The notes below the pieces were generated by a model, which searched no databases, was not told the DNA's origin, and was given only the letters and a program-made list of their open reading frames with translations. From an uncultured Gammaproteobacteria bacterium (lineage in GTDB: Bacteria; Patescibacteriota; Microgenomatia; UBA12405; CAZMUE01), in NCBI GenBank assembly GCA_964569725.1, contig CAZMUE010000001.1, forward strand, positions 1 through 30,552: a DNA stretch of 30,552 bases, given 5' to 3'. The stretch's first letter is position 1; every line of letters starts with the position of its first letter. This document shows, one piece after another, positions 1 through 30,552 of this stretch. A program made the translations under genes and the position numbers.

Positions 1-1
1 A

Positions 2-418
2 CAACAAGGGTTGGAAGTGGTCGCCGGAGACATGACAAGACTCCCGTTTCCCGCAGGCACTTTCAGGCATGTGTTGCTCATGGATGTAATTGAACATGTT
101 CCCCCAGAAGCGGCCGAACAGACTCTCCTTGAAGCAGAAAGGGTTATGTCGCCTGGCGGCAAACTGTCAATTAGGACGCCCAATGAAGCCTGTTTATGGA
201 CAGATAAATATCGCCTCGATCCAGATCATCGTAGGCTTTATTCTCCGGCAACCCTAACAACTCTTGCTTCTCGCGCTGGTTTTACAGAAATTATGACTAC
301 TACTATTGGCCACCCAGATACTCAAGATTTTTATACTACTACCGCAGGCAACTCTCGACCAGAAGACGGAGCAGTTATTCTTCTTCAGGGAAAGAAAAAA
401 ATAACGAGCGATGAATAA
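2..418 (+). CDS. Class I SAM-dependent methyltransferase (Methyltransf_11-like), 5'-truncated by window edge
   Basis: Frame is open from base 2 (CAA CAA GGG TTG...). 'GDMTRLPFPAGTFRHVLLMDVIEHV...LSPGGKLSIRTPN' match post-motif I/II elements of class I MTases. Motif I is absent, so the true start lies upstream. Confidence 0.8.
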   Translation, partial: QQGLEVVAGDMTRLPFPAGTFRHVLLMDVIEHVPPEAAEQTLLEAERVMSPGGKLSIRTPNEACLWTDKYRLDPDHRRLYSPATLTTLASRAGFTEIMTTTIGHPDTQDFYTTTAGNSRPEDGAVILLQGKKKITSDE

Positions 419-1040
419 AAGGGGGGTCTATTCTAAGAAAGCAAAAGCTGTGTTTCTTGATCGCGATGGCATCATAAACGAGATGTGTTATCACCAAGAA
501 CACGGATTGATTGATTCTCCAGCTAACCCTAAACAATTCAAGCTTATTGCAGGAATAGGAAAGCTTATTAAAGACCTCAAAAAGCTAGGCTATCTAGTAA
601 TCGTCATTTCAAATCAACCAGGAATAGCTAAGAAAAAATACACTAAAAGGCTTTTCAATGCTATTAACCAAAAAATGCACAAGTTGTTAGAAAAAGAGGA
701 GACGAAACTGGATGACGTCTACTATTGCCTTCATCATCCAGAAGCCAAAGATAAAAATTATAAGGCAATTTGTGAGTGTAGAAAACCAAAACCGGGCCTG
801 ATATTGAGAGCGGCTAAAGATCATAATCTGAATCTTAAGAAATCATGGTTTGTCGGTGACGGGATTGTTGATATCCAAGCTGGAAAAACCGCTGGCTGCA
901 AAACCATTCTCGTCGCGAAACTAAAACTAGATCTTTGCCAAATCCTAATCAAAAAATCTATAAGACCGAATTTCGTTGTCTCTGATCTAAATTGGGTCTT
1001 GAAAACCATCGAGGAACAAGATAAAATTAAATCCTTATAA
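411..1040 (+). CDS. gmhB: D-glycero-D-manno-heptose 1,7-bisphosphate phosphatase (HAD IIIA, GmhB family)
   Basis: FLDRDG (DxD) motif, ISNQ.G, Zn-binding CxH...CxC followed by RKPKPG, and VGDG..DIQAG. Confidence 0.88.
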   Translation: MNKRGVYSKKAKAVFLDRDGIINEMCYHQEHGLIDSPANPKQFKLIAGIGKLIKDLKKLGYLVIVISNQPGIAKKKYTKRLFNAINQKMHKLLEKEETKLDDVYYCLHHPEAKDKNYKAICECRKPKPGLILRAAKDHNLNLKKSWFVGDGIVDIQAGKTAGCKTILVAKLKLDLCQILIKKSIRPNFVVSDLNWVLKTIEEQDKIKSL

Positions 1041-1059
1041 TAATTAATCTTATACTTGA

Positions 1060-1821
1060 ATGACAAAAGAAATCTTCATTGACTCTGCCCGATTGCCCGA
1101 AATTGAAAAATGGGTCGCCTCTGGGGTTGTCACCGGCGTCACTACGAACCAATTGATAATGTTGAGGGATGGCGTCCACCCTCGAGGTTTTTCTGAGCAT
1201 ATCGAAAGGATCTGCGAAATCGCAAAAGGCCCTGTTTCCGTAGAGTTAACAGATAGTACTGCAGACGCAGGAACCATGGCAACGGAAGCAACGAGATTAA
1301 GAGCAATTCATGATCTGGTAGTGATAAAAGTTCCTCTTATTCCAGGAACAACTAAATCCCTCGAAGTAATCAGGGAATTAACGGCTAGAGGAATCCCTGT
1401 GAACGTTACCTGCATGATGACAGTCGAGCAAATGATGATAGCAGCTCTAGCCACTAAAGATGCCGAACAGGCGTATATTAGCCTTTTCTGGGGCCGAGCC
1501 CAAGAAGATCACGAGCAATATCGAACTAATCCAGAATGGGTCACCGCCCATCCTAAGGTGGGGCCAGAAAGTGAAATCAATTCTAACCCGGGAAGAATTA
1601 CAGAAACTGTTGCTGATTTCATACGGACAGGAGGCCAGAAACAACCAAGAATCATCATCGGAAGCGTGAGAAATGCTAGGCAGGTGGGAGAAGCTTTTGC
1701 TCATGGAGCCCATATTGTTACTGTGCCTCCGGCAATACTAGAAGCCATGATTGAGAGCGAAAGGACCAGACAAACTATAATCCAATTCGATCAGGCGTGG
1801 GAAGAGCTTAAGCAAAAATAA
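1060..1821 (+). CDS. tal: Transaldolase (short TalC/FSA-family type)
   Basis: IFIDS, GVTTN, GPVSVE, Schiff-base lysine in VIKVP, NVT, YISLFWGR, GSVR and IVTVP. Glu in SVE and Phe in SLF are the transaldolase-type residues, not the FSA-type Gln/Tyr. Confidence 0.85.
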   Translation: MTKEIFIDSARLPEIEKWVASGVVTGVTTNQLIMLRDGVHPRGFSEHIERICEIAKGPVSVELTDSTADAGTMATEATRLRAIHDLVVIKVPLIPGTTKSLEVIRELTARGIPVNVTCMMTVEQMMIAALATKDAEQAYISLFWGRAQEDHEQYRTNPEWVTAHPKVGPESEINSNPGRITETVADFIRTGGQKQPRIIIGSVRNARQVGEAFAHGAHIVTVPPAILEAMIESERTRQTIIQFDQAWEELKQK

Positions 1822-1846
1822 AACGCTAGGTTAGCTTTCCCTATTC

Positions 1847-1875
1847 TTGTCTTCAAGACTCAAATCATTTATCAT
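1847..1875 (+). promoter_or_regulatory. Putative sigma70 promoter, leaderless-type (TTGTCT-N17-TATCAT, 7 nt before ATG 1883)
   Basis: -35 TTGTCT at 1847-1852, 17-nt spacer, -10 TATCAT at 1870-1875, ATG at 1883. Confidence 0.5.
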
Positions 1876-1882
1876 AAACAGG

Positions 1883-2566
1883 ATGATTAAAGATAATTTT
1901 AATGATATCAGTGTTGTCATGATATCGCTAAATGAAGAGCGAGCCGTCGCCGAAGTGATAAGAAAAATTAGGAAAACTCTCCCCGGAAGCGAAATTGTCC
2001 TTGTAGACAGCAGCACCGACAACACCGCTAAAATCGCCAAGAGGTTAAAAGCAAAAGTTATTAAACAGTTGCCTCCAAAAGGCTATGGAAAAGCCATGAT
2101 CAGGGGGTTAAGGGGTGCAAAAAACCACATTGTCATCACTATGGATTGCGATAACACCTACCCCATTGAGGCTGCCCCTCTTATGATAAAAGGGATTAGA
2201 GAAGGATACGATCTCGTCGGAACCACTAGAATGTCACAAGGGAAACCGGACAATCTCTCCTGGCCTAATTATTTAATTAATAGAATATTTTCTATTACGG
2301 CTTCTGTTCTCTTCCTTCGCAAAGTAGAAGATCTTCACACAGGAATGAGAGCTTACAGAAAAAAAATGCTTGAAGCTATTGATTGGCAACCAGAAGGACC
2401 TGCGCTTCCAGTGGAATTACTGCTCAAGCCCGTGGCTCTAGGCTATAAAATCACTGAAATTCCGATAGCCTATCATCCAAGGATTGGAAAAAGCACCCAT
2501 CGCAATAAACTTAAAAGCGTTTTTTGGACTTTTAAGCGTATTTTTAGATGCCGGTTTAAAAAATAA
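1883..2566 (+). CDS. GT2 glycosyltransferase, DPM1/Ppm1-like (putative polyprenol-phosphate glycosyltransferase)
   Basis: MISLNEE, VDSS.D.T, GYGKA, TMDCD (DxD), DL.TGMRAY and EIPI.Y.PR.G. ATG 1883 is preferred over the TTG at 1847 because that TTG coincides with a -35-like box. Confidence 0.85.
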   Translation: MIKDNFNDISVVMISLNEERAVAEVIRKIRKTLPGSEIVLVDSSTDNTAKIAKRLKAKVIKQLPPKGYGKAMIRGLRGAKNHIVITMDCDNTYPIEAAPLMIKGIREGYDLVGTTRMSQGKPDNLSWPNYLINRIFSITASVLFLRKVEDLHTGMRAYRKKMLEAIDWQPEGPALPVELLLKPVALGYKITEIPIAYHPRIGKSTHRNKLKSVFWTFKRIFRCRFKK

Positions 2567-2567
2567 A

Positions 2568-2573
2568 AAGGAG
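2568..2573 (+). promoter_or_regulatory. Shine-Dalgarno-like RBS (AAGGAG) for the 2582 CDS
   Basis: AAGGAG lies 8 nt upstream of ATG 2582. Confidence 0.5.
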
Positions 2574-2581
2574 ATGCAAAG

Positions 2582-2938
2582 ATGGAGTTTTTATTAATAT
2601 TGGTAAACATTTTTCTCGCTATTTGCGGACAATTGACCACCAAGATCGGAATTAATAAAATTGGTTCTTTCTCCTCTATGCCTATTCAGACCTTTATTTT
2701 TAAATGTCTTACTTCGCCATTAGTCATCTTGGGCTTTGGTCTCTATTTCTTTTCTGCTCTTATCTGGTTCATGGTTTTGTCTAGGATAAACTTAAGCGTT
2801 GCTTATCCCACTCTAAGTCTAGGATATATCCTCATCTTAATAACCAGTGCGATTTTTCTTAAGGAACCAATAGGGTTAGCAAAGATTATGGGTAGCCTCC
2901 TTATCTGCGCCGGGGTTTTTCTTATTTTCAGGAAATGA
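2582..2938 (+). CDS. Small 4-TM EamA/SMR (DMT) protein, ArnE/ArnF-like; putative lipid-linked sugar flippase
   Basis: 118 aa with 4 hydrophobic segments. GQL..K, LSR..LS.AYP.LSL.Y and F.KEP....K..G are typical of ArnE/F-like DMT proteins. Sits between GT2 genes. Confidence 0.75.
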   Translation: MEFLLILVNIFLAICGQLTTKIGINKIGSFSSMPIQTFIFKCLTSPLVILGFGLYFFSALIWFMVLSRINLSVAYPTLSLGYILILITSAIFLKEPIGLAKIMGSLLICAGVFLIFRK

Positions 2939-3477
2939 AAACAAACCCAAAGATAACTATTTTAATCCCCTGCCTCAATGAAGAAAAGGTTATCGGATTT
3001 GTAATCAAAAATTGCCTTGCCGGATTGAAAAAAGCCAAAACAAAAGGTCAAATTCTTATTATTAACAGCGGAAATGATAGATCTGCCCAAATCGCTAGAA
3101 ATCTTGGCGCCGACGTTGTTAATAAACCTAAAGGAGGGCTTGGTCAAGCCTATATTGACGCTATCCCGTATATCAAAGGTGAATACGTTATCATGGGAGA
3201 CGCTGACGCGACTTATGACTATGCAGAAGTAGATAAATTCATTAGGAAGCTCCGCCAGGGATATCAGTTGGTTATGGGAACACGACTGAAAGGATGGATT
3301 GAAAAGGATGCCATGCCGAAGCTACACCGATATTTTGGAACCCCAATAATTACCTGGATGCTTAATAGGCTCTTTGGGCTTAGTTTTTCTGATGTTGCTT
3401 GCGGTATGCGAGCAGTTACCAAAGAAGCGCTTTTAAGAATCGATTTGAAATCTCCATCTTGGGAATACGCCTTCTGA
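2935..3477 (+). CDS. GT2 N-terminal fragment (catalytic core) of the frameshifted gene
   Basis: IPCLNEE, GLGQAY, MGDADATYD, VMGTRLKG and SDVACGMRA. Ends prematurely at TGA 3475. Confidence 0.65.
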   Translation: MKTNPKITILIPCLNEEKVIGFVIKNCLAGLKKAKTKGQILIINSGNDRSAQIARNLGADVVNKPKGGLGQAYIDAIPYIKGEYVIMGDADATYDYAEVDKFIRKLRQGYQLVMGTRLKGWIEKDAMPKLHRYFGTPIITWMLNRLFGLSFSDVACGMRAVTKEALLRIDLKSPSWEYAF

Positions 3478-3478
3478 A

Positions 3479-4093
3479 ATGATGGTTAAGGCTGGACTCC
3501 TAAAGCTAAAGTCTACAGAAGTCCCAATTCATTTCTATAAAGATCGCGAAGGAAGAGTTAGCCATCACAAAAGAACCGGTTGGTTTTCGCCATGGTATGC
3601 CGCTTGGATTAATTTTAAAATAATCCTGCTTTACGCTCCTAACTTTGTTTTTTTCACCCCAGGAGCACTCTCTCTAGCGGCGGGAATCACCATAATTATT
3701 ATTAGCGCCCTTAGACTGCAGCCAAATTTTCAATATCACTGGAACCTTTTAGGTTTTATATTAACCATTATTGGTTATTCGACAATCCAATTGGGTATTC
3801 TTTCAAAAACGTTCAGTGACTTAAACAATTACTACCATGATAGGATAATCGTCTTTATGAAAGAAAAATTTACTTACGATAAAGGCATGCTCGCTGGATT
3901 TTCTGTGTTAATCAGTGGCTTAGCATTGACCTCGCTCTTGATAATCCAATGGCTCCGCAATCAATTCAAACTCACCGAGATTTCTTCCCAGGGAATCCTC
4001 GGCCTTCTTCTAATTGTTATGGGATTCCAAACGATTATCTTTACTTTTATCTATACCTTATTTAAATTTTCCACAAAAAAACAGATTCCCTAA
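3479..4093 (+). CDS. GT2 C-terminal fragment (EVPI motif plus TM helices) of the frameshifted gene
   Basis: Begins with MMVKA...EVPIHFYKDREGRVSH, the end of the GT2 domain, followed by about 4 TM segments. Confidence 0.6.
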   Translation: MMVKAGLLKLKSTEVPIHFYKDREGRVSHHKRTGWFSPWYAAWINFKIILLYAPNFVFFTPGALSLAAGITIIIISALRLQPNFQYHWNLLGFILTIIGYSTIQLGILSKTFSDLNNYYHDRIIVFMKEKFTYDKGMLAGFSVLISGLALTSLLIIQWLRNQFKLTEISSQGILGLLLIVMGFQTIIFTFIYTLFKFSTKKQIP

Positions 4094-4094
4094 G

Positions 4095-5771
4095 ATGCAA
4101 CCGAACGGAAAGGTCATAAAAACCGCTCTAATCATCTCACTCCTCACAATCCTCGCTGGATATATTAGGTGGGGAATCGTAGAGTCTTTTAGGCACTATC
4201 CTTCATTTGACGAAGCCGGCGTTTTAGCAATTGCTAGCAATTTTGCTCGCTATGGCAAATACGAAACTGTTTTCAGCTACCATGATGCTCCTAGAGTATT
4301 TAATCCCTTCACCTCCACTGGACCAACTATTATCTTGCCGCTATCTCTTTTATTCAAGATTTTCGGTTATCACTATTATTTGTCAAATCTATTCATTTTT
4401 TTCACCATAAACTTACCCCTAATAGGAATAGCCCTGCTTTTATTTTGGCGCATTATCGGTAAAAAACCAATTGTGGAAAAAATGTTCCTTTCTTTACTGC
4501 TTCTTCTTCTGTTTTTAACCAACAGGCTATTCTACGCCTCCCCCCCCACCGGCGGATCGTTTACCCACGGAGCTCTCGGCGAACCATGTGCCTTATTATT
4601 AATTTTTACTTCTTCTCTCTTGCTGCTAAAAGGAATTGAGTCTAATAAACTATTAATTGTTTTCCTTTCCGGTCTCTTCTCTGCCCTTGCCCTTAGTACT
4701 AAAACCATCGCCACATTTCATTTCTTGGCCCTAACCTTAACTATTGGCATCGTTGCCCTAGTGAGCTTAAAAAGAAAACAGAAAAACAGAATGTTTTTCT
4801 TGAAGGCTATTTTTTTAATTATCACCGCACTCATAGCTGTCAAACTACCATTATCATTGTGGAAAAATTATAGTCTCAGGGGCCAAGATCAACAGAACTA
4901 CAGCTGTTGGCGTAAGGTTGCCTTTTTAACTCATGGATCTGGGATTAATACTTTGCTTTCTATGGACCCTAAAAGAATCATGCAAAAACCTAAACAATCG
5001 CTGGAAGAAATAATTAATTTCTTTACTGTAAAAATGGAGCCTAAATGGAAAATCGAAAACAAGAAGAAAATAATTTATCTTGCAATCGGCTACGTTCTAA
5101 CAGCCATAATCTCATTTATCAACTTTATAAAGACACTTTCTTTTGCTCTTATCAAGAAAAAGACTAAAGTCGACGGACAGTTAATCGTCAAGGCGACTCT
5201 CGTTGTAACTTTTCTGCTGGGAACCATTTGGTTTTTCCTTCTCGCCGATTTTTCCTGGATTAGGTTCTATTACATCTTTTTCTTTGTCGGAATTATTACC
5301 GTCATCTCTCTCGCTCCTAGCCTTCCAAAAATCCTCTATCTGATTTTTACTTCCCTCGTTTTTGCGCATTCTCTCGTTGCCATCTGGCAAAGTCCTTTTG
5401 CCATCACTAACCTAACTATTCCAGAAGACAAGATCGATATAGAAAAAACAGACAATGCTTTTATCGATTTTTATTCTGCTAGGGAGAACAAGAAAACTTA
5501 TGTCTGCGGATATTTCAATCTCTGGGAAATAACCTTTCTCACGGGAGTTAATTTCTATAATAACATCCTAATCGACGACAGGGACATTTTTCCAGAGTGC
5601 AATTTCTTGCCTCGTCCTAAAATTAGAGATATTACGGAAAAAGATTTTTACTACATCATGGTGTCAACCATGAATCCAGAATGCGAGCAGTTCCTTGAGG
5701 ATAACAAAAATCGCCTAAAGCTTATTTATGACCAAGGTTATCGGGTTTTTACTACCACCTCGTCGCCTTAG
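4095..5771 (+). CDS. GT-C fold membrane glycosyltransferase (ArnT/PMT/GT39-like)
   Basis: N-terminal TM, then PSFDEA (acidic DE loop), STGP..ILP...LFKIFG, GE..A, ALSTK, many TMs and a soluble C-terminal tail. ATG 4095 lies just after the upstream stop and is preferred over 4014. Confidence 0.7.
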   Translation: MQPNGKVIKTALIISLLTILAGYIRWGIVESFRHYPSFDEAGVLAIASNFARYGKYETVFSYHDAPRVFNPFTSTGPTIILPLSLLFKIFGYHYYLSNLFIFFTINLPLIGIALLLFWRIIGKKPIVEKMFLSLLLLLLFLTNRLFYASPPTGGSFTHGALGEPCALLLIFTSSLLLLKGIESNKLLIVFLSGLFSALALSTKTIATFHFLALTLTIGIVALVSLKRKQKNRMFFLKAIFLIITALIAVKLPLSLWKNYSLRGQDQQNYSCWRKVAFLTHGSGINTLLSMDPKRIMQKPKQSLEEIINFFTVKMEPKWKIENKKKIIYLAIGYVLTAIISFINFIKTLSFALIKKKTKVDGQLIVKATLVVTFLLGTIWFFLLADFSWIRFYYIFFFVGIITVISLAPSLPKILYLIFTSLVFAHSLVAIWQSPFAITNLTIPEDKIDIEKTDNAFIDFYSARENKKTYVCGYFNLWEITFLTGVNFYNNILIDDRDIFPECNFLPRPKIRDITEKDFYYIMVSTMNPECEQFLEDNKNRLKLIYDQGYRVFTTTSSP

Positions 5772-8651: not shown

Positions 8652-8660
8652 GGTTGCCTA

Positions 8661-8669
8661 ATTCTACCA
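8661..8669 (-). promoter_or_regulatory. Extended -10 promoter (TGGTAGAAT), 9 nt upstream of ATG 8651
   Basis: Minus strand reads TGGTAGAAT-TAGGCAACC-ATG. Confidence 0.5.
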
Positions 8670-8739
8670 GAAACAATAAGTCTTAATACTATCACCCATA
8701 TCTTTATTATAAGACCTCTTTTCATCAGCTATCTAAAAA

Positions 8740-8748
8740 TGATAAAAT
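8740..8748 (+). promoter_or_regulatory. Extended -10 promoter (TGATAAAAT), 6 nt upstream of ATG 8755; leaderless-type
   Basis: Plus strand reads TGATAAAAT-CTGAAC-ATG, with no SD sequence. Confidence 0.55.
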
Positions 8749-22155: not shown

Positions 22156-22808
22156 TATTTCTGAGCAATCAATAAAAGCTCTTGCCCCAGTTTTTTAATA
22201 GGCAGAAAGACTGGTTTTATTATAGAGGGTTTTACTTTTTCTCTTAAAGATGGGGTTGGCGGAAAACCAAAAGAAAAAATATGCTTGATCTTCACGCGAC
22301 TAAAACCAATATTCCTTAGATTTAAAAGCCAATATTGCTGATCCCAAACATTAATATGGGTTTGATCTTTATCCTTAAAGAATTTCCTCAATACAAAGGC
22401 AGCGTTGGGAGTAGTAGCGTAAAACAAACCCCTTTTCTTTAATCTTTGATAAATGAATTTCAACATTCCCTGGTCATCTTCCAAATGCTCTAGGACATCA
22501 AAAGCAGTGATAGCATCGAAAGTTTTTCCCTCAAAAAAGGAGAAATTGCTCCTAATCTTAGCCTTGGTGAATTTCTTTGCTTGGCTAATGGCGTATTCGG
22601 AAATCTCTAAACCATAAGTTTTGATCCCCTTTTCATCGCAAAGACCGAGGAAATAACCAAAACCGCAGCCAATATCTAAAATCCTCCTCGCCCTCTTCCT
22701 TTTCAAAATCTGTTTTAAATGATAGCTAAAAATATCTCTTCTCTCTTTATTAAATTGATAGCCAGCTGACTGGTTGGCAAAATAGCTTTGATCATAAGGG
22801 GCTTTCAT
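22155..22808 (-). CDS. Class I SAM-dependent methyltransferase
   Basis: ILDIGCGFG, GLEIS.YA, FDAITAFDVLEHL and ATTPN. Confidence 0.9.
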   Translation of the reverse strand: MKAPYDQSYFANQSAGYQFNKERRDIFSYHLKQILKRKRARRILDIGCGFGYFLGLCDEKGIKTYGLEISEYAISQAKKFTKAKIRSNFSFFEGKTFDAITAFDVLEHLEDDQGMLKFIYQRLKKRGLFYATTPNAAFVLRKFFKDKDQTHINVWDQQYWLLNLRNIGFSRVKIKHIFSFGFPPTPSLREKVKPSIIKPVFLPIKKLGQELLLIAQK

Positions 22809-23806
22809 GGTTTTATTCTCCTTAATTTTAAAATTAGAGAAAGAATCTTTTCTTTATAATTATCAACCATTAGCCGCAAGAATTTTCTGGGAATAATGAT
22901 GGTTCCCAGACTGCAGAACCAAAAACCAAGATTAAACAGATTTCTCGGTCTCTGTTTCGCTAAGATCAAAATCTCTTTAAGCAGATTCTTAAAAGAGCCA
23001 TAGTTTTTTATCTGCACTAGACCAATATAATGAGTAGTGATCTGGTCAATGCCGGTTTTCCTCACTTTTTCATATCTCTCGCCTTGGTAAACATCTTTAA
23101 ACATCCTTACCCAACTCTCGGTCGGAGAAATATCGTAAATACCTGATTTAAACCTGGTCTGACTACTCTTAATCCTAACCGCGACGGTGTAATCTTTTAG
23201 AAAAACAACCTTATGTTTTTTGGTAATCGAGGCGAAGGGATAAATATGGGCCGGGAAGGTATCGGTATGAAAATCGCGATCTAAATTTTTTACCCGATAG
23301 GCTAAACCGGAAAGCTGGCCAACGGAGCCAAAAATACTTCTTACCTCTTTTGGGCCATCGAAAACAGAAATTACCCTATCTTTCTCTCTATCATAAGGCA
23401 TTATGGCCCTAACCGGTCTTTTTGAATCTTCATCAAACCAATAGAAGGGCCGGGTCACTGCTCCGATATCTTTATCCAAAAAGAAAGCGTCATGGGTCTT
23501 GCGTAAAGCATCTTTTAAAAGGAAATCGTCTTGGGCCATTAAAAAGAGAAGATCAGAATCAACCATTTTCCTTAAAACCTGGAGATTGGCGCCATAGCCT
23601 AAGTTCCCAGGATTCCTGTGTATTTTGATTCGCCTATCTTTAAAACTCTTAATTGACTCTACAGTATCATCAGTCGAGCTATCATCAGAAACGATCATTT
23701 TAAAATCAGTTAAGTTTTGGCTCAAAATGCTTCTTATGGTTTCTTTGATCCATTGACTACCGTTATAAGTGGGCATGGCAATAGTTAAGCTTAATTTTTT
23801 ACTCAT
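22805..23806 (-). CDS. GT2 glycosyltransferase
   Basis: AMPTYNG, VSDDSSTDDT, NLGYG.N and MAQDD. Confidence 0.87.
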   Translation of the reverse strand: MSKKLSLTIAMPTYNGSQWIKETIRSILSQNLTDFKMIVSDDSSTDDTVESIKSFKDRRIKIHRNPGNLGYGANLQVLRKMVDSDLLFLMAQDDFLLKDALRKTHDAFFLDKDIGAVTRPFYWFDEDSKRPVRAIMPYDREKDRVISVFDGPKEVRSIFGSVGQLSGLAYRVKNLDRDFHTDTFPAHIYPFASITKKHKVVFLKDYTVAVRIKSSQTRFKSGIYDISPTESWVRMFKDVYQGERYEKVRKTGIDQITTHYIGLVQIKNYGSFKNLLKEILILAKQRPRNLFNLGFWFCSLGTIIIPRKFLRLMVDNYKEKILSLILKLRRIKP

Positions 23807-24923
23807 TAAACATTGTTTTTATAACTGCTATTTCTCTTTCCGCTGTCTTCTCCCAATTAAAACGTCTGGCATTAACCAAAGCTTCTTTGGTTAATTTTTG
23901 CCGTAGTTCATTGTTTTCAAGAATTTCTATAACTGCTCTTGCGAAAGCAACCTTATCTCCTTGGCTGATCTTAATCATCCCTTGGGGAAAAATTTCCGCA
24001 AAGACCGGCAGATCCCAAGCCACTACTGGCAAGCCCAAAGCCTGAGCTTCTACTAAAACCAAGCCAAAACCTTCCTCATAAGAAGGAAAAATGAAAACCT
24101 TGGCTGATTTTATGGTCTCAAAGGCGAGTTGATTGGGCAGGAAACCTAAAAGATCAATATTTTTATTCACTTGTTTAACCACAATTTTTCCCCTGAGCCC
24201 TGCGATGATTTTCTCTTCCCCTTTGCCAATGATCGCCAGTCTTGCTTGAGGAATTATTTTAATCACCTCTTGCCAGATCTCCGGTAAATCAAGGATGCCT
24301 TTAGAACGCCTAAGCTGCGCCATGAAAACTGCTTCGTATCCATGCTTCTTTGTTTTGATCTTCTCCGGATCTTTAATCCCGATTCCCGAATAATTCACGA
24401 AGATCTTTTTTAGGCTAAAACCCAAACTTATTAATTGGCTTTTTAAAAGCTTGCTGTTAACCGAAATCTGATCCGCTTTTGACTTTATTAAGATAAAGCT
24501 TAATTTTTGAAACAACCAGGCAATCTTCCTGGCCTTAGGAATTAAATGGTGAAGTCTTTGAAACCAAAGAGTCTTTCTTTTTCTTAACTTCATGAAAAAG
24601 GCAGGAATAACATCTGGCAAAGCATCAGAACTGACTATCAACAAATCTCTGGAATCAAGATTAATTTTCAGAAAGATGGCCAGAAAAATTCTTTTAAGAT
24701 AGATTATCCATGGATTATTGAATTTCTTTTCTTTTGTTGTTAATAAATATTCTGCCTCCAAACCGTTTTCCTGGCAAAGCTCTTTACCTAATAAAGAGGT
24801 AATAATTATTTTGGGGTGGTTCTTCTCCCTTTTAAGAATTTCAATTAGGGCAATATCCGCTCCACTCTTGCCTTGAGAAAAGGCATTCATAAAAGCAATT
24901 ATTTTCTTATTCTTTGCTGCCAT
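23799..24923 (-). CDS. GT4 (GT-B) glycosyltransferase
   Basis: KSGAD, F....R.SKG.LDL and FPSYEEGFGLVLVEA (EX7E). ATG 24923 (MAAKNK) is preferred over 25019, which would overlap the upstream gene by 121 nt. Confidence 0.87.
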   Translation of the reverse strand: MAAKNKKIIAFMNAFSQGKSGADIALIEILKREKNHPKIIITSLLGKELCQENGLEAEYLLTTKEKKFNNPWIIYLKRIFLAIFLKINLDSRDLLIVSSDALPDVIPAFFMKLRKRKTLWFQRLHHLIPKARKIAWLFQKLSFILIKSKADQISVNSKLLKSQLISLGFSLKKIFVNYSGIGIKDPEKIKTKKHGYEAVFMAQLRRSKGILDLPEIWQEVIKIIPQARLAIIGKGEEKIIAGLRGKIVVKQVNKNIDLLGFLPNQLAFETIKSAKVFIFPSYEEGFGLVLVEAQALGLPVVAWDLPVFAEIFPQGMIKISQGDKVAFARAVIEILENNELRQKLTKEALVNARRFNWEKTAEREIAVIKTMFNE

Positions 24924-25759
24924 TTTTTTATTAAAGCTGGTAAGTAAGTAAAACCCACTCCGATTCTCAAAACATAGATCCCCAAAACCAAGAATGGGTG
25001 GCTCAAAAACCTTTTCCACTTGCCTTTTTCTAAGAAGATACCAAAATAGCGATAACAGAAATCAAACTGCAGCTGAGTTTCTTTAGTGCCCCATTTTTTA
25101 AAGTATTGACTAAAATTCTTCTGATAATAACCTTTCTTGGCCAAATAATTTTTGAGGTTAAAATCAGGTTCATGATGATAAATCACTGCTCCCAGATCCC
25201 TGGCAAGCAACCCGATTTTCCCTTCTTTTCTAACTCTTTTGTCTAAATCCCAATCCTCGCAGGCAAACAAGTCTTCATCAAAACCATTGACCTTCTTAAA
25301 GGCTTTTCTTTCTAAGAACCTTGGGGCATCAATCATCGTCCCGTCATAAAAGCTTCTTTCTAAATTCCTGACTTTTGCCCAAAAAGAACTTCCCGGAATC
25401 ACCTCAGGCAGATAAAGAGCGACCAGATTCTCTTTCTCTGCCTTAAGAACAGCCTCTTTAATCACATTTCTTGAAAGACTCATGTCTGCATCTAAATAAA
25501 AAAGGTATTTGCCCTTGGCTTTTTTCAGCATGCCGAAGTTACGCTGGGCTGACCTTTCCTGGCCATAAGTAAAAACCTTATTAGTATATTGACGGCTAAT
25601 TTCTTTGGTTCTATCCGTAGATGTTGGGTTATCAACAACAATGATTTCTATTCTCTCCTGAGGATAATCTTGATTCTTCAGGCTTTGCAAACAGCGACTA
25701 ATATTTTTTTCTTCATTTTTGGTGGGGATAACCACAGAAACCAAAGGTCGAATTTTCAT
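24899..25759 (-). CDS. GT2 glycosyltransferase
   Basis: VSVVIPTKNEE, VVDN..STD.T, ERSAQRN.G, YLDAD and GFDE.L.ACEDWDL. Confidence 0.88.
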   Translation of the reverse strand: MKIRPLVSVVIPTKNEEKNISRCLQSLKNQDYPQERIEIIVVDNPTSTDRTKEISRQYTNKVFTYGQERSAQRNFGMLKKAKGKYLFYLDADMSLSRNVIKEAVLKAEKENLVALYLPEVIPGSSFWAKVRNLERSFYDGTMIDAPRFLERKAFKKVNGFDEDLFACEDWDLDKRVRKEGKIGLLARDLGAVIYHHEPDFNLKNYLAKKGYYQKNFSQYFKKWGTKETQLQFDFCYRYFGIFLEKGKWKRFLSHPFLVLGIYVLRIGVGFTYLPALIKKWQQRIRK

Positions 25760-25762
25760 TTG

Positions 25763-26209
25763 CTAGTAGCCCACAAAACTTTTTAACGAAAAGCCATTTA
25801 AGAGTCTATAGCTGAAAAAATAGGCCAAAGGGTGATGGCGGAAAGAGAAATTATCAAAGGCAATATGGAAAAAATAAGATAAAGCCAAAACCCAATTGAG
25901 ATTCTTTATCCCTAATTTATTACCCAACGCTTTACCTATTAAAAACATCAGCGGAATGAATTCCCAGCCGTGAAAAAAGATATAGGCTTTCTGCGAAGGG
26001 CCGACATAATTCTCCACGTTAAGAAATTCTACTAAGTCAAAAGAGATTCCGGCATGAAGCCAATAATCAAACCAGTGGTCGACATCAATGAAAAAGCCTA
26101 CCAGAAAGCTAGCCAGAACCAATCGCCAATCTCTGGCCTTTTTCCAAAAGAAAAAGGCCACTAATCCCGATAATGAGAAATGGATAATTTCATGAGCCAA
26201 AAGATCCAT
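25763..26209 (-). CDS. Small membrane-bound putative metal-dependent hydrolase (YdjM-like)
   Basis: HEIIH (H-x3-H), DVDH, FFHG and HIAFD (H-x3-D) lie in or near TM helices. Confidence 0.62.
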   Translation of the reverse strand: MDLLAHEIIHFSLSGLVAFFFWKKARDWRLVLASFLVGFFIDVDHWFDYWLHAGISFDLVEFLNVENYVGPSQKAYIFFHGWEFIPLMFLIGKALGNKLGIKNLNWVLALSYFFHIAFDNFSFRHHPLAYFFSYRLLNGFSLKSFVGY

Positions 26210-27671
26210 TTTTTCTTTTTCCTTTGAAATCTAAAAGCCTACTAATATATTTTAAAACAAACCAAAGATAGGCTTTGAATTTGACTCTACTGGTCAAGCC
26301 TTCTCTTAATTTCCTCACCAGGAACTGGGGCGTCCAAACAAAAGCATAGCTTTTTCTCACTAAGGCCATAATCTCTTCATCTAAAAGGGCGGTTTTGAGA
26401 ATCGGTTCTTTCATATCATAAGCATCCCAATCTAAAGTTTTCAGCCATTTTTTCTTTTGAGCCTCTTTGAACAAAGAGGTACCCGGATAAGGGATAGCCA
26501 CTGTCGCCTGCCAGCTATCTACCAGTCCCCTGGCAATCAAGCCCCTAGTAAAGGCTAGAGTCTTGAAAACAGCTTTTTTATCTTCCCATGGGTAGCCGAA
26601 CATAATGGTAATATGAGGAGAAAGGCCTGCCCTTTTGGCCAGCCTTAAGGCTGGCTCAATCTGCTCAACCTTCAGGTTTTTATTAAGTTTATCTAATGTC
26701 TCTTGATTGGCAGATTCTAGACCATAGAGCAGGAAACGGAAACCAGCTCTAGCCATTAGCTGATAGTCTTTTTCAGTTAAGCCCGAATTGAGTCTCATGT
26801 TGGCGCTAATTTTGATTTTTTTATGGTAGCCGCGCCTAATCATTCCCTGGCAAAATCCCCTTAGCCATTTACCAGTAGGGAATGTTCCAGAATCATCCAT
26901 GATTTCTTTAACGGGATAATTTTCCAGAAGATAACCAACTTCATCTAAAGCTCTTTTAACGCTCATGATGCGATAGCAGTTACTAGGAAAAAGGGTTGTC
27001 CAAGAACAGAAACTACATTTTCCCCACCAACAATCACGGCCAAACATTGTATAGGTTCCTGGTATCTGGCCATAATTACTGTTCTTATAAGCATAAAGCT
27101 GCCATTGAGTCAGATCTCGATCAATAAAAGGCAGTTTGTCCAGGTCGTGATTCAGCCTGAAGAAACCAGTAGTTTTGATTCTTCTGCCCTGACGATACCA
27201 AATACCTGGTTCTAGTTTTTCTTTTCGAGTTAGGTAATTAACCAGATTTAAGAGTAAGAAATCATAATCTCCCCCAGTCAAAACATAGTCTACCCTTGAC
27301 TTCTGCAGGCTCTCTTTGGGCAGAGCAGTAACATGATCTCCGGCTAAAACCACCATCGTTTTTAATCTTTTTTTAAGCTCGTTAATAATCTGCCAGTGCT
27401 TTTTTACTGCTGGAGTTTTACTTTCTAAGAAGATCAGGTCTGGCCCTATCTTCTTAACTTCGCTTAACCATCTTTTATATCCCCAGCCTTGACTAATACC
27501 GTCCAGCCAAAAAACTTGATAACCAACTCTCTTAAGCATCGTCGCTGCGTAAGCTGAAACCATCGGATAAGCTGTCCAGGCTGTTTTTGCCCATTGGAAT
27601 TGACGATTCTGGCCTAAAAGAGGAATTCCTTTAGATGATTCTAGCGGCGGGTAAGCCACAATAACTTTCAT
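26190..27671 (-). CDS. Cobalamin-binding-domain radical SAM protein (class B methyltransferase-like)
   Basis: N-terminal B12-binding-like domain (PDLI....TP, GDHVTALP.E, DYVL.G), CWWGKCSFC cluster motif, MDDSGTF, GLESANQETL, MFGYPWE and IPYPGT.LF. Start could be ATG 27671, 27677 or 27683. Confidence 0.85.
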   Translation of the reverse strand: MKVIVAYPPLESSKGIPLLGQNRQFQWAKTAWTAYPMVSAYAATMLKRVGYQVFWLDGISQGWGYKRWLSEVKKIGPDLIFLESKTPAVKKHWQIINELKKRLKTMVVLAGDHVTALPKESLQKSRVDYVLTGGDYDFLLLNLVNYLTRKEKLEPGIWYRQGRRIKTTGFFRLNHDLDKLPFIDRDLTQWQLYAYKNSNYGQIPGTYTMFGRDCWWGKCSFCSWTTLFPSNCYRIMSVKRALDEVGYLLENYPVKEIMDDSGTFPTGKWLRGFCQGMIRRGYHKKIKISANMRLNSGLTEKDYQLMARAGFRFLLYGLESANQETLDKLNKNLKVEQIEPALRLAKRAGLSPHITIMFGYPWEDKKAVFKTLAFTRGLIARGLVDSWQATVAIPYPGTSLFKEAQKKKWLKTLDWDAYDMKEPILKTALLDEEIMALVRKSYAFVWTPQFLVRKLREGLTSRVKFKAYLWFVLKYISRLLDFKGKRKNGSFGS

Positions 27672-27702
27672 TGCCATTAGCATACCACGAATGTAGTATA
27701 CT
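27671..27702. promoter_or_regulatory. Putative bidirectional promoter: palindrome AGTATACT gives TATACT on both strands; also TTGCCA-N17-TAGTAT on +
   Basis: AGTATACT at 27695-27702 lies 11 nt from ATG 27714 (+) and 11 nt from ATG 27683 (-). TTGCCA at 27671-27676 and TAGTAT at 27694-27699. Confidence 0.5.
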
Positions 27703-27713
27703 CTAATCAAAAT

Positions 27714-28355
27714 ATGCTCAGAAGATTGGCTCATCGTTTTTTAGATTCAGTCCTTCCACCCCCAAGAGATTTCGCTGGTTATGAATCCTTGATTAAGTTT
27801 ATTAAAAAGAATCAGATTCTTAAGCTCGAGGGCGATCTAGTTGAGATCGGAACCCTCTTCGGCGGCGGTGCCCGTAAATTGGCTAAACTTCTAGAAAAAG
27901 AAAAAAGCGATAAAAAACTCTATGTCGTTGATATCTTCGACTTAGAAAAGGATAAAAGTATTACCGCTCAGGGAAGGGCTATGACTAATATCTATAAGGA
28001 AATTCTTGAAAGGTTCGGACCAAAACGCAGTCAATGGGAAGTCTTTCTTTTAACTACTCGAAATTGTCCTAATATTTTTACTATTAAGAAGGATTCTAAA
28101 AAGGCTAAGCTGCCAACCCAGAAAGTCTGTTTTTGCTTCATCGATGGTAATCATCAACCCGATTATGTCAAAAATGATTTTTATCTTATCTGGAAGAAAC
28201 TTGTTTCTCGAGGCTTGGTAGCTTTCCATGATTACAATTCCAATCTACCGCTAGTGACTAAAGCCGTTAATCAACTGCTGAAGCGGCATTATCGCCAAAT
28301 TGATAAGACTACCTATGACCCCAAGAACACCATCCTTTACGTTGAAAAAAAATAA
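27714..28355 (+). CDS. Class I SAM-dependent methyltransferase (Methyltransf_24/TylF-like)
   Basis: GDLVEIGTLFGGG, YVVDIF, FIDGNH....VKNDF and GLVAFHDY. Confidence 0.85.
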   Translation: MLRRLAHRFLDSVLPPPRDFAGYESLIKFIKKNQILKLEGDLVEIGTLFGGGARKLAKLLEKEKSDKKLYVVDIFDLEKDKSITAQGRAMTNIYKEILERFGPKRSQWEVFLLTTRNCPNIFTIKKDSKKAKLPTQKVCFCFIDGNHQPDYVKNDFYLIWKKLVSRGLVAFHDYNSNLPLVTKAVNQLLKRHYRQIDKTTYDPKNTILYVEKK

Positions 28356-28374
28356 TGACTAAGGCAACAAAAAG

Positions 28375-30201
28375 ATGCTTACCGGAAAACAAAAAAAATA
28401 TTTAAAAAAGAATCTCCGCAAACTCAGTCCAAGTAAAATCGCCAGAAAGCTTGGCGTTTCTGAAGAGATTATTAGGGAGTATCTGAAGAAAAAATGGAAA
28501 GGCAAAAAATATCAGAAATTCCAAAGTCTGCACCTCTCCCTGAATAGAAAAAGCCTGGTTTCTAGAATTACCAAATTTAATTTTAAGGATTGGCTTAAGA
28601 AAAACCGCTTCCAGCTTTTAATCATTGCTTTTCTGACTTTCGTGGTTTACGCAAACGGCATCAGCAATGAGTTTGTTTCTGACGATGTTGCTGGCATTTT
28701 GCAGAATCCGGCCATCGGCCAACTAGATCATGTTTTTGCCAATCCTCCCGGGATTATGCAACCACTGATTTTCTTTATCATCCATGAAGTCTTTGGCAAG
28801 ATTCCGGCTGCCTTCAGAACGGTCAATATTTTCTTTCATTTGGCTAATTGTCTTCTGGTTTATCTTTCTGTTTCTTTATTAGTCAATCGCTCAGCTGCTT
28901 TTTTTGGCGCCGCCCTAGCCGCTGTTCATCCCCTAATGGTAGAGTCAGTGACCTGGATTTCCGGAGGTATTTACGCTCAATATAGTTTCTTCTTGCTCTT
29001 GGGTTTAGTTTTTTATCTCTTTTCTCTTAAAGATAAACGCTTTTATTGCCTCACCATTCTTGCTTTTATTGTCGGTCTAATTTCCTCTGAAAAAGCCATG
29101 GTCTTCCCTTTTATTCTCCTAGCCCTCCATTTAAGCTATCCCAAAGATTTTAAAGGTTGGCAAAAGCTAATCATTCCCTTTCTGATTGGTTTCACCTGGA
29201 TCAGTTTTTATGTCGGTAAAGTTCCCGAAAGAATCAGCATTCTTAAAAATGTCCATTACGAGCAAGCCCAAACCATTAATCCTTTGCTGCAAATACCTAT
29301 TGCTATTGGCTCCTATCTGCAAATGACTTTTTGGCCAACTGGATTAACCCTTTATCACACCGAGCTTCATTTTTCTGTTCCCGTGTTCGTTTCTAAGGTT
29401 CTTGTCCTCTTGGTTTATCTTTTTTTTCTCGGCTATTCTTTCTTCCGTAAGAAAAAATACTTTTTCTGGCTCTCTCTTTTCGGAATTGCTCTTTCACCGA
29501 CTTTGACTCCTTTTGGCATCTCTTGGATTATCGCTGAACGCTATGCCTATTTAGGATTATTCGGTATTTTTGTCAGCCTAGGCCTCTTACTCGCCAGACT
29601 AGGCCGCAGAAAGGACCGCAAAATGATAATCGCCATCCTTTTTGCTCTTATTATTTTTGGCTTTTCAGCTCGAACTATTGTTAGAAATATTGACTGGAAA
29701 AACCAGGATAATCTTTGGATTGCGGCTGCCAAAACTTCACCCTCAAGCTCACAAAACCACAATAACTTAGGCGATATGTACGCTCGTCATAATGATTTGG
29801 ATAAGGCTATTGAGGAGTTTGAAATCGCCATCAAGTTGAAGCCTGGCTATGCTGACGCTTACCATAATCTCGCTAACATCTACTTGCGCAAAGAAGAAAT
29901 GGATAAAGCCATTGCTGGTTATGAAAAAGCTTTAGAGCTTAATCCCAATATCTGGCAATCGCACCAGAACTTGGCTGCTATTTATTTCAATCAGAATAAT
30001 CCAGAAGAAGCAGAAAAACACTTAAGGGCTGCTTTAGAAATTAACCCTAAAGAGACTAGTCTTTATCCAGACCTAGCTATTATCCTCTTTAGAAAAGGCC
30101 AAAAGCAGGCCAGCCTTGATCTTCTCAATCAAGCCTTGCAAATAGATCCCGATAATCAAAAGGCTAGAGATCTATTTATCCAGATCAAACAGACTAATTA
30201 A
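28375..30201 (+). CDS. TMTC-like GT-C protein O-glycosyltransferase with four C-terminal TPRs and an N-terminal HTH-like extension
   Basis: EFVSDD..ILQNP, HPLMVESVTWISG, SEKAM.FP, AERYAYL and RNIDWKN..NLW followed by TPRs match TMTC/DUF1736-type transferases. Confidence 0.83.
   Translation: MLTGKQKKYLKKNLRKLSPSKIARKLGVSEEIIREYLKKKWKGKKYQKFQSLHLSLNRKSLVSRITKFNFKDWLKKNRFQLLIIAFLTFVVYANGISNEFVSDDVAGILQNPAIGQLDHVFANPPGIMQPLIFFIIHEVFGKIPAAFRTVNIFFHLANCLLVYLSVSLLVNRSAAFFGAALAAVHPLMVESVTWISGGIYAQYSFFLLLGLVFYLFSLKDKRFYCLTILAFIVGLISSEKAMVFPFILLALHLSYPKDFKGWQKLIIPFLIGFTWISFYVGKVPERISILKNVHYEQAQTINPLLQIPIAIGSYLQMTFWPTGLTLYHTELHFSVPVFVSKVLVLLVYLFFLGYSFFRKKKYFFWLSLFGIALSPTLTPFGISWIIAERYAYLGLFGIFVSLGLLLARLGRRKDRKMIIAILFALIIFGFSARTIVRNIDWKNQDNLWIAAAKTSPSSSQNHNNLGDMYARHNDLDKAIEEFEIAIKLKPGYADAYHNLANIYLRKEEMDKAIAGYEKALELNPNIWQSHQNLAAIYFNQNNPEEAEKHLRAALEINPKETSLYPDLAIILFRKGQKQASLDLLNQALQIDPDNQKARDLFIQIKQTN
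29749..30156 (+). repeat. Four tandem 34-aa tetratricopeptide repeats (protein-level)
   Basis: SQNHNNLG...KPGY / ADAYHNLA...NPNI / WQSHQNLA...NPKE / TSLYPDLA...DPDN, each 34 aa. Confidence 0.9.
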
Positions 30202-30552
30202 TCTTTTCTTAAGCCCCGAGAGCTAAAAAAACCTTTCAGGAAGAAAAATCCATAGTAAAAATGAGTTATGAGAATGACTAGCATCGTCGTCATCGCTAGG
30301 GCTAAACTACTTCTTTTCAGAAAAATTTCAAAGCCCGCGATTAGGAGAAAGAGGGCATATAAAGAAATCCCTAGCCGGTATACGGACCAGAGATTAAAAA
30401 GCTGGGCAATTATTGGTCCAAGAAAAAAACCAATCAAGAAAAGGCTCGGCAAAAGATAGCCTAATCTTAAGGATGTTTTTGGCAAGACTCTGGCAAAGTG
30501 ACCTCGCTGCGCTCCATAGCGAGAAATCTGTTTTAAATGACCCTTAAAGATG
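30198..30552 (-). CDS. C-terminal TM end of a GT2 glycosyltransferase (5'-truncated by window edge)
   Basis: Frame stays open to the window end: ...IFKGHLKQISRYGAQRGHFARVLPKTSLRLGYLLPSLF...THFYYG...LKG, typical of ExoA-like GT2 C-termini. The ORF-track TTG at 30485 is internal. Confidence 0.72.
   Translation of the reverse strand, partial: IFKGHLKQISRYGAQRGHFARVLPKTSLRLGYLLPSLFLIGFFLGPIIAQLFNLWSVYRLGISLYALFLLIAGFEIFLKRSSLALAMTTMLVILITHFYYGFFFLKGFFSSRGLRKD

Follow-up and report, generated by a model that had tools for sequence, protein, structure and literature searches.

A probable cell-envelope glycan island with genes for polymer export, extracytoplasmic decoration and sugar supply on a 30.5-kb metagenomic contig

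Contig CAZMUE010000001.1, a stretch of 30,552 bp that was analysed over its whole length (the window), quite probably represents an island of cell-envelope glycan genes whose three layers, namely, polymer export, extracytoplasmic decoration and sugar supply, cooperate. This reading builds on the domain identities of the encoded proteins, the operon layout and synteny in other metagenomic loci. The contig has a GC content of about 38%, is coding almost throughout, and contains 28 open reading frames (ORFs) in six transcription units. Genes were assigned with Pfam, to whose gathering thresholds (GA) the scores below are compared, and with NCBIfam, and related metagenomic loci (L002-L066) were used for synteny comparison. 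The scans linked 26 of the 28 ORFs to glycans, a count far above chance, which bears out the claim of the first-pass annotation of this DNA that all of its recognisable genes are glycan-related; a GmhB-like phosphatase of the haloacid dehalogenase (HAD) superfamily and a transaldolase, which its tally did not list, fit as well. Its gene inventory proved correct in most points. No rRNA, tRNA or ribosomal-protein genes, and no Rfam or tandem-repeat features, were detected in the window. The same sequence was found as a shorter Logan contig, in one metagenomic run only (ERR6222542), and the closest syntenic locus, L004, originates from an anaerobic digester sample (PMC7842101).

According to the proposed scheme, glycosyltransferases of families GT2 and GT4 would build up a polyprenyl-bound polysaccharide on the cytoplasmic side of the membrane. 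Chain growth would be stopped by an 823-residue terminator together with the adjoining 308-residue methyltransferase, with a coiled coil of ~100 residues keeping the kinase-motif N-terminal domain of the terminator away from its GT2 module. The product would bear a methyl or methyl-phosphate cap, and the ABC transporter Wzm/Wzt would export capped chains only, the cap being read by the C-terminal module of Wzt. Three DPM1/GtrB-type GT2 enzymes would form polyprenyl-phosphate monosaccharides, which an ArnE/F-like protein would flip across the membrane. On the outer side, GT-C-fold transferases of the YfhO and GT87 families and a PMT_2-like protein with tetratricopeptide repeats (TPRs) would add sugars, and two orphan membrane proteins of 558 and 959 residues would probably do so too. 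The GmhB-like phosphatase and the transaldolase would feed a heptose-type supply, while the epimerase, the methyltransferases and a B12-binding radical S-adenosylmethionine (SAM) protein would tailor sugars. Candidate acceptors are proteins, a wall polymer and the exported polymer itself.

Polymer export and the candidate chain terminator

The minus-strand operon (27734-12239) extends over about 15.5 kb and comprises fourteen tightly packed genes, which in operon order are the following (TM, transmembrane helices).

26190-27734, minus strand: B12-binding radical SAM protein, first gene of the operon (Radical_SAM 50.2 bits, above GA; B12-binding 27.2 bits)
25763-26209, minus strand: 148-residue His-rich membrane protein (sub-threshold DUF6122 match only)
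24899-25759, minus strand: GT2 glycosyltransferase (85.8 bits)
23799-24923 (longest ORF to 25019), minus strand: GT4 glycosyltransferase (Glycos_transf_1 89.7 bits)
22805-23806, minus strand: GT2 glycosyltransferase (80 bits)
22155-22808, minus strand: SAM methyltransferase (Methyltransf_23 76.7 bits)
20941-22155, minus strand: GT87-family GT-C glycosyltransferase, ~10 TM (PF09594 33.4 bits, GA 25; acidic motif in the first loop)
19874-20944, minus strand: GT2 glycosyltransferase with C-terminal membrane helices after residue 250 (97.9 bits; best NCBIfam match a rhamnosyltransferase subfamily)
19097-19867, minus strand: Wzm, ABC-2 permease (ABC2_membrane 70 bits)
17871-19100, minus strand: Wzt, ABC ATPase with C-terminal carbohydrate-binding domain (ABC_tran 81.6 bits; Wzt_C)
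16963-17889, minus strand: 308-residue SAM methyltransferase adjoining Wzt, candidate cap methyltransferase (RrnaAD, Methyltransf_11/25)
14495-16966, minus strand: 823-residue multi-module protein (N-terminal domain, residues 1-270; putative coiled coil, ~295-395; GT2, ~425-665; helical tail)
13164-14495, minus strand: GT4 glycosyltransferase of the GT-B fold (Glyco_transf_4 and Glycos_transf_1)
12239-13174, minus strand: GalE-type NAD-dependent sugar epimerase/dehydratase, last gene of the operon (Epimerase 171.8 bits, GalE 149 bits)

The family matches agree with the earlier identification of Wzm and Wzt. The Wzt_C domain (PF14524, 77.8 bits against a GA of 30.4) occupies residues 269-390 of Wzt, and its binding specificity is a prediction; the best NCBIfam match of Wzt is a TagH-type teichoic-acid exporter (231 bits, under the cut-off). 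In characterised ABC-transporter-dependent systems the C-terminal carbohydrate-binding module (CBM) of Wzt binds the chain-terminating residue and only finished chains are exported, the terminator being part of a protein whose coiled coil serves as a ruler (PMC11231755, PMC3482155). Since the operon encodes Wzm, a Wzt with the Wzt_C domain and an adjoining methyltransferase, its best reading is that it makes an ABC-exported, end-capped polymer, as the first-pass annotation had proposed. Homologues of the 308-residue methyltransferase (37% identity) are located directly after Wzt in L047, and after Wzt and an 806-residue glycosyltransferase in L003. The gene order in L047, Wzm, Wzt, methyltransferase, a protein with the N-terminal domain described below, and GT2, mirrors that of the window.

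The 823-residue protein encoded next to this methyltransferase is, by analogy with these systems, a putative terminator and ruler fused to a polymerase module. Only its GT2 module (residues ~425-665; 67.6 bits in Pfam) has broad homologues, the distant ones of which bear WsaF-type domains. Residues ~295-395 are the sole strongly heptad-like stretch by a crude heptad score, and weak phmmer matches to coiled-coil proteins were obtained. The N-terminal ~270 residues form a domain without a Pfam model, which in L003, L044 and L047 is again encoded next to Wzt and to homologues of the 308-residue methyltransferase. Residues D156, N161, D173 and W176 of this domain are invariant, and its motifs are V-x-K, D-x4-N and [I/L]D-x-E/K-W, with D156-x4-N161 and ID173-x-E-W176 as the copies in the 823-residue protein itself. 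Such motifs are typical of choline/aminoglycoside-kinase-like enzymes. The lone profile match of the domain, a non-significant one to DUF4135 (E 0.038), extends across the motif region, and a search of the Protein Data Bank (PDB) revealed no similarity of the 823-residue protein to WbdD. The ORF6 protein of Klebsiella pneumoniae O7, which makes a methyl-phosphate cap, comprises a methyltransferase, a kinase, a CBM, a coiled coil and two GT2 modules, and its kinase domain is likewise invisible to sequence searches (PMC11231755). By analogy, a methyl or methyl-phosphate cap is a reasonable hypothesis for the polymer of the window.

The remaining genes of the operon would provide chain assembly and sugar tailoring. 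Pfam recognises seven GT2 domains in the window (genes starting at 1847, 2935, 8755, 14495, 19874, 22805 and 24899), fewer than the roughly nine counted at first, while the count of two GT4 enzymes (13164-14495 and 23799-25019 as longest ORF) stands. The start of the second of these is probably ATG 24923 or 24890, because the GTG codon at 25019 would make the gene overlap the upstream one by 121 nt; the first has a syntenic homologue in L004 (39% identity). Four SAM methyltransferases had been reported, and all four were recovered (2-418, truncated; 16963-17889; 22155-22808; 27714-28355), as was the B12-radical SAM protein. The best NCBIfam matches of the latter are HpnJ (131 bits) and BchE (115 bits), both far under the cut-offs. 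Its gene heads the operon, and a homologue (81 bits) adjoins a gene of the 959-residue protein family in L016 (509-1858); these positions hint at radical chemistry on a sugar, possibly C-methylation. The 148-residue membrane protein bears H-x3-H and D-x-D-H motifs.

Lipid-phosphate sugars and candidate GT-C transferases

The other five transcription units are a plus-strand unit of eight ORFs (2-5771), a single minus-strand gene (5772-8651), a plus-strand pair (8755-12257), a second plus-strand pair (27714-30201) and a small minus-strand gene at the contig end.

2-418, plus strand: class I SAM methyltransferase, C-terminal part, the gene running off the contig start, frame open from base 2 (Methyltransf_11/_23/_25)
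411-1040, plus strand: GmhB-like HAD-IIIA phosphatase, D-glycero-D-manno-heptose 1,7-bisphosphate 7-phosphatase type (PRK08942 152 bits, GmhB_yaeD 141 bits)
1060-1821, plus strand: transaldolase/fructose-6-phosphate aldolase (TAL_FSA 115.6 bits)
1847-2566, plus strand: soluble DPM1/AglJ-type GT2, putative polyprenyl-phosphate hexose synthase (GT2 80 bits)
2582-2938, plus strand: ArnF/ArnE-like small SMR/EamA-type four-helix protein of 118 residues, putative lipid-phosphate-sugar flippase (ArnF)
2935-3477, plus strand: GT2 catalytic half of a GtrB/AglJ-type enzyme (GT2 64 bits, AglJ 102 bits)
3479-4093, plus strand: C-terminal membrane half of the GtrB-type enzyme, ~4 TM (GT2_TM_C, PF26629)
4095-5771, plus strand: 558-residue polytopic protein of a rare family without a Pfam model, ~11 TM, putative GT-C-fold transferase (topology, synteny, weak fold match)
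5772-8651, minus strand: 959-residue polytopic protein of a family without a Pfam model, at least 16 TM and a C-terminal beta-sandwich (context, topology)
8755-9471, plus strand: second soluble DPM1-type GT2 (GT2 91.6 bits; dolichyl-phosphate hexose transferase 194 bits)
9450-12257, plus strand: YfhO-family GT-C glycosyltransferase of 935 residues, ~14 TM (PF09586 52.1 bits, GA 28.5, residues 127-915)
27714-28355, plus strand: Methyltransf_24 protein, TylF/CmcI-like, sugar O-methyltransferase type (PF13578 49.5 bits; weak TylF and RMNT_CmcI)
28375-30201, plus strand: PMT_2-like polytopic protein with C-terminal TPRs, at least 8 TM (PMT_2 20.6 bits, E 5e-4, GA 26.1)
30198-30485, minus strand: 95-residue membrane protein, 3-4 TM by hydropathy (no family match)

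Three small GT2 enzymes, which the first-pass annotation rightly called DPM1-like, putatively make polyprenyl-phosphate sugars: the best NCBIfam matches of the genes at 1847 (172 bits against a cut-off of 375), 2935 (102 bits) and 8755 (194 bits) are polyprenyl- or dolichyl-phosphate sugar synthases, all three under the equivalog cut-offs. The enzymes encoded at 1847 and 8755 share 51% identity; the former gene probably starts at 1883 instead, as called by Prodigal on the Logan contig. The earlier mention of a small flippase is matched by the 118-residue protein (ArnF 57 bits against a cut-off of 99, ArnE 33 bits, EamA 28.6 bits with a GA of 28.2), for which no GtrA-family match was found.

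The GtrB-type gene is split by an extra T at 3472/3473, a 1-nt insertion that yields WEYAF and a stop where L004 has WEYASEM, and the ATG of the membrane half stands right after the stop codon (TGAaATG). The gene is unbroken in L004 (379 residues) and L002 (401 residues), and the N- and C-terminal halves are 65% and 60% identical, respectively, to the fused L004 protein. The Logan assembly of the same run has the identical split. Programmed frameshifting was set aside: the site lacks a slippery run and has a start codon right behind the stop. The split gene may be a pseudogene or, by analogy, may encode a two-part enzyme like GacI and GacJ (PMC8035078).

The three lipid-phosphate-sugar synthases have three large transferases as neighbours. 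Possible pairings are the GtrB-type enzyme with the 558-residue protein, the GT2 encoded at 8755 with YfhO, and, by elimination, the GT2 encoded at 1847, together with the flippase, with the 959-residue protein. The start of the YfhO gene overlaps the 8755 gene by 22 nt, which suggests translational coupling of the two. The 959-residue protein gene is divergent from the 8755 gene across a 103-bp gap (8652-8754) with promoter-like sites on both strands. There is no spacer between convergent genes: those of the 558- and 959-residue proteins meet stop-to-stop at 5771/5772, and the YfhO gene shares 19 nt with the epimerase gene at their 3' ends (12239-12257), which leaves no room for terminators between the units.

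The five GT-C enzymes announced in the first-pass annotation fall into two groups, since YfhO, GT87 and, below GA, PMT_2 are matched by hidden Markov models (HMMs) and the 558- and 959-residue proteins match none. YfhO proteins are classed as GT-C-fold transferases (PMC8035078), and a weak NCBIfam match to PgfM2 was also recorded in the window. The PMT_2-like protein, with a DD motif in the first loop after TM1 and four TPRs at residues ~450-605, is probably a GT-C transferase of the GT39/83 type, to judge from its sequence. An all-against-all BLAST of the window proteins found zero similarity among the GT-C candidates. Extracytoplasmic glycosylation from lipid-phosphate sugars, another element of the original interpretation, is supported by the set of genes in the window, which encode the three synthases, the ArnE/F-like flippase candidate and proteins of the YfhO, GT87 and PMT_2 types.

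Whether this glycosylation serves the exported polymer is a separate matter. It had been proposed that surface proteins or lipids are glycosylated separately, and in its full form this explanation takes the ABC-exported polymer as one product and lets the plus-strand modules act on other acceptors, such as pilins, S-layer proteins, Ser/Thr-rich regions or lipoglycans. The modules do lie on different strands in separate transcription units, with promoter-like sites clustering in the divergent gap; the PMT_2-TPR architecture suggests protein recognition; and YfhO/PgfM2-type and related enzymes are reported to glycosylate streptococcal proteins (PMC12041528). However, the GT87 gene belongs to the Wzm/Wzt operon, where it is flanked by GT2 and methyltransferase genes and overlaps the GT2 gene with membrane helices. 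This placement suggests that at least some GT-C enzymes act on the exported polymer rather than on a separate acceptor; decoration of the same polymer accounts for it no less well than the earlier proposal does. In addition, homologues of the 959-residue protein share a contig stretch with Wzm/Wzt or Wzt-associated genes in L003, L018, L047 and L053, and the heptose, GtrB-type and 558-residue protein genes of L004 again lie beside epimerase, GT4 and 823-like genes, a neighbourhood that indicates a conserved functional unit. Fully independent pathways are considered unlikely, and an island of cooperating layers is preferred.

The GT-C status of the 558-residue protein is likely but unproven, as judged from a low-confidence model and its context. 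Among 5.8 billion proteins, four homologues (34-42% identity) were found, and a metagenome scan with the family gave no match. Residues D39-E40 in the loop after TM1 are invariant among the five homologues. A Foldseek search of the PDB with the structural model returned GT-C enzymes (STT3, PglB, EmbA/B, AftA) as 13 of the 14 best matches, all non-significant (E 0.07-0.6, TM-score 0.25-0.35), with ArnT, Pmt4, PimE and PIG-M lower in the list. Alignment of its profile with those of the PMT_2-TPR and GT87 proteins in hhalign gained no classification. In the window its gene comes after the GtrB-type gene; the homologues in L004 and L005 come after a GtrB-type and a methyltransferase gene.

The 959-residue protein is a putative lipid-phosphate-sugar-dependent transferase, a reading drawn from the synthase-type GT2 neighbours of its family and from an architecture of many TM helices followed by a C-terminal CBM-like domain. 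Large GT-C enzymes have such an architecture, in which the CBM binds the acceptor (PMC8035078, PMC11127046). An exhaustive profile search at E<=1e-3 collected 1,531 representative clusters, and a word-indexed search gave four relatives, the best with 33% identity, in a metagenome-assembled genome of candidate division FCPU426, a candidate phylum outside the candidate phyla radiation (CPR). Among the conserved residues are the near-invariant D55 of the first loop, E250, H356 and the cluster R598/R602-H603/E607. In a survey of 44 related loci with usable flanks, a DPM1/GtrB-type GT2 gene was present within 5 kb in 15 and directly adjacent in six, and an ArnE/F-like gene was also found in four. 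All ten of the neighbouring GT2 enzymes that were scanned best matched AglJ, dolichyl-phosphate hexose transferase, PpgS, ArnC or PgfS. Foldseek with the model of the 959-residue protein matched residues ~850-959 only, to CBM6-type modules and toxin receptor-binding domains, and hhalign of its profile against YfhO gained no classification.

Many members of this family (proteins P0040-P0185) have an extra N-terminal TM helix and an extracytoplasmic domain of ~170 residues. The ~210-residue N-terminal extension of the long members was considered as a fused GT2 and rejected; it has no Pfam model and looks like one TM helix with an ectodomain.

Alternatively, the 959-residue protein, and possibly the 558-residue one, might be no glycosyltransferase at all but another envelope protein: an acyl- or phosphotransferase, a polymerase- or ligase-like enzyme, or else a transporter or scaffold whose tail binds carbohydrate. 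The membrane domain of the former matches no HMM, PDB sequence or fold, a DPM1-type GT2 is nearby in only about a third of the loci of its family, and its L003 homologue adjoins MBOAT, AlgX and acyltransferase_3 genes. This alternative is doubtful in view of the near-invariant acidic and basic loop residues, D55 included, the six directly adjacent synthase-type GT2 genes, the GT-C-like architecture and the predominance of GT-C enzymes in the Foldseek ranking of the 558-residue protein; a transferase function is favoured for both orphans.

Probable heptose-type sugar supply

The first plus-strand unit begins, after the truncated methyltransferase gene, with the GmhB-like phosphatase, which scores just under the NCBIfam cut-offs for PRK08942 and GmhB_yaeD, and the transaldolase, which likely supplies sedoheptulose-7-phosphate. 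In L004 the GmhB-like homologue (44% identity) is clustered with HddC-, GmhA- and HddA-like genes (112 bits for the GmhB-like, 101 for the HddC-like, 43 for the GmhA-like and 182 for the HddA-like protein, all under curated cut-offs). The transaldolase gene is syntenic there (52% identity), and the heptose-type genes and transaldolase are located directly upstream of the pair encoding the GtrB-type and 558-residue proteins. In the window the GmhB-like gene is the only one found of this four-enzyme set. Given the L004 synteny and the position of these genes near a contig end, at which the window begins, the phosphatase and transaldolase genes are read as the tail of a GDP-heptose-type cassette running off the contig. 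A GDP-D-glycero-D-manno-heptose pathway of this type has been described for the capsules of Campylobacter jejuni (PMC10680097). A genome-collection scan with the transaldolase, by a method requiring exact 8-residue matches, gave a single match (34% identity).

Fused proteins combining an HddC-like nucleotidyltransferase with GmhB are encoded near genes of the 959-residue protein family in L047 (15459-16763) and L048 (11804-13075), a further tie between such loci and heptose nucleotide synthesis. The boldest extension of these observations would be that the 558- and 959-residue proteins are founders of two new GT-C-type families and that the GtrB-type enzyme and the 558-residue protein carry out extracytoplasmic heptosylation via polyprenyl-phosphate-heptose; this combined proposal is regarded as improbable, and no description of such a donor was found in the literature searched.

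Two loci related to the 558-residue protein family, L004 (10346-11550) and L066 (3940-5150), encode a split transketolase-like pair (~236 and ~165 residues) between GT2, methyltransferase and short-chain dehydrogenase/reductase genes; the window has none. The pair suggests unusual chemistry on the carbon skeleton of sugars.

Acceptor of the sugars and relation to known systems

Several findings weigh against the scheme. All NCBIfam equivalog matches are under the curated cut-offs, and the PMT_2 and B12-binding matches are under the Pfam gathering thresholds. The window contains no gene of an initiating phosphoglycosyltransferase or ligase, which may be encoded elsewhere in the genome, so co-location is the only link between the GT-C enzymes and the exported polymer. 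The frameshift may have inactivated the GtrB branch, and a homologue of the 558-residue protein in L066 stands in a context lacking the upstream GtrB-type gene. The kinase reading of the N-terminal domain of the candidate terminator is drawn from short sequence motifs, and profile searches against the PDB and Pfam yielded no significant match to a kinase fold. Neither orphan membrane protein has a Pfam, NCBIfam or PDB-sequence match, even with relaxed Pfam searches on the homologues and with profiles of five and, for the 959-residue protein, 80 sequences. The AlphaFold2 models of both, each built from five sequences, are of low confidence for the former (pLDDT 54, pTM 0.61) and poor for the latter (pLDDT 51), the membrane part of which matched no known fold in Foldseek.

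An ordinary diderm O-antigen cluster would work by the same mechanism as the cooperating layers proposed here, with lipopolysaccharide as the acceptor: the Wzm/Wzt polymer would be transferred to lipid A-core by a WaaL encoded elsewhere, and GT-C enzymes would modify the O-antigen in the periplasm, as in Citrobacter youngae O1/O2, Shigella Gtr and Arn-type systems. The characterised systems with a terminator, a Wzt CBM and a coiled coil cited above are all Gram-negative O-antigens (PMC11231755, PMC3482155), and there are documented cases of ABC-exported O-antigens that three-component GT-C systems decorate (PMC11127046). The ArnE/F-like flippase candidate and the O-antigen-type terminator logic would suit a diderm, and the nearest named homologue of the 959-residue protein comes from FCPU426, not from a CPR lineage. 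Against this, there are no WaaL, Lpx, Kdo or core genes within the 30.5 kb; as first reported for initiators, ligase, polymerase and lipid A genes, no ORF of the window matched WecA/MraY (Glycos_transf_4), Bac_transf (WbaP), Wzy_C/WaaL, LytR_cpsA_psr or Lpx models of Pfam and NCBIfam. Characterised YfhO members belong to Gram-positive bacteria (PMC8035078, PMC7389260), and Wzt best matches TagH-type teichoic-acid exporters. YfhO, the TagH-like Wzt and GT87 suggest a monoderm, whereas the flippase and the terminator logic suggest a diderm; an ordinary O-antigen cluster is possible, if on the unlikely side, and the glycan island of three layers is retained as the preferred interpretation.

If this interpretation is correct, an uncultured anaerobe-type organism shares the export and quality-control logic of enterobacterial O-antigens, with a coiled-coil-ruler terminator and a cap-reading ABC transporter, and has several lipid-phosphate-sugar decoration systems stacked on top of it. 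The practical value of the locus is that it draws attention to two membrane-protein families that lack annotation, both of them promising candidates for new GT-C families in CAZy and one very widespread in metagenomes, and to a divergent putative terminator domain invisible at the sequence level. The machinery is of known kinds and opens no new concept in glycobiology.

The slg clusters are among the closest known systems. In them, an O-methyl-capped glycan is exported by an ABC transporter in a monoderm, multi-module rhamnosyl- and methyltransferases are encoded, and the heptose nucleotide pathway is clustered with them; the classical clusters have no GT-C enzymes. Unlike them, the window encodes no WsaB-type O-oligosaccharyltransferase or WsaP initiator, and the GmhB-like and transaldolase genes are the sole heptose genes on its contig.

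With the systems of Escherichia coli O9a and K. pneumoniae O3 (WbdD-WbdA), K. pneumoniae O7 (ORF6) and O12 (WbbB) (PMC3482155, PMC11231755) the window shares Wzm and a Wzt with a C-terminal binding domain, as well as a methyltransferase within the same operon. As in O7 ORF6, a coiled coil, here a putative one, separates an N-terminal non-glycosyltransferase domain from a C-terminal GT2. However, one GT2 module rather than two follows the coiled coil, the methyltransferase is a separate polypeptide rather than a fused module, the kinase fold and activity of the N-terminal domain are candidate features, and WecA and WaaL are not encoded in the 30.5-kb window.

In the pentofuranose three-component system of C. 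youngae O1/O2, a GT-C enzyme of family GT136 decorates a polymer that an ABC transporter has exported; the C-terminal CBM of the enzyme binds the substrate, and auxiliary epimerases diversify the donor (PMC11127046). There the donor is made by a polyprenyl-phosphoribose synthase dependent on phosphoribosyl pyrophosphate and the flippase is of the MATE type, whereas the window encodes DPM1/GtrB-type GT2 enzymes and an SMR-type flippase; no sequence relation of the window proteins to this system was detected.

The multi-component systems CsbB/GtcA/YfhO, GtlA/GtcA/GtlB, GacI-J-K-L, GtrA/B/V and ArnC/ArnE-F/ArnT (PMC8035078, PMC7389260) share three components with the window: a polyprenyl-phosphate sugar synthase of the GT-A type, a small flippase and a polytopic transferase of the GT-C type, of which the window has a YfhO member. 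Variants with a soluble GT2, or with a GT2 and a membrane protein encoded separately, are known, as in GacI/GacJ. The window differs in having three synthases, one of them with a frameshifted gene, up to five transferases, two of which are candidates from undescribed families, and one visible flippase, of the ArnE/F (SMR) rather than the GtrA type. The locus is thus a real mosaic of two well-described strategies, ABC-transporter-dependent assembly of a capped glycan and multi-component transmembrane glycosylation.

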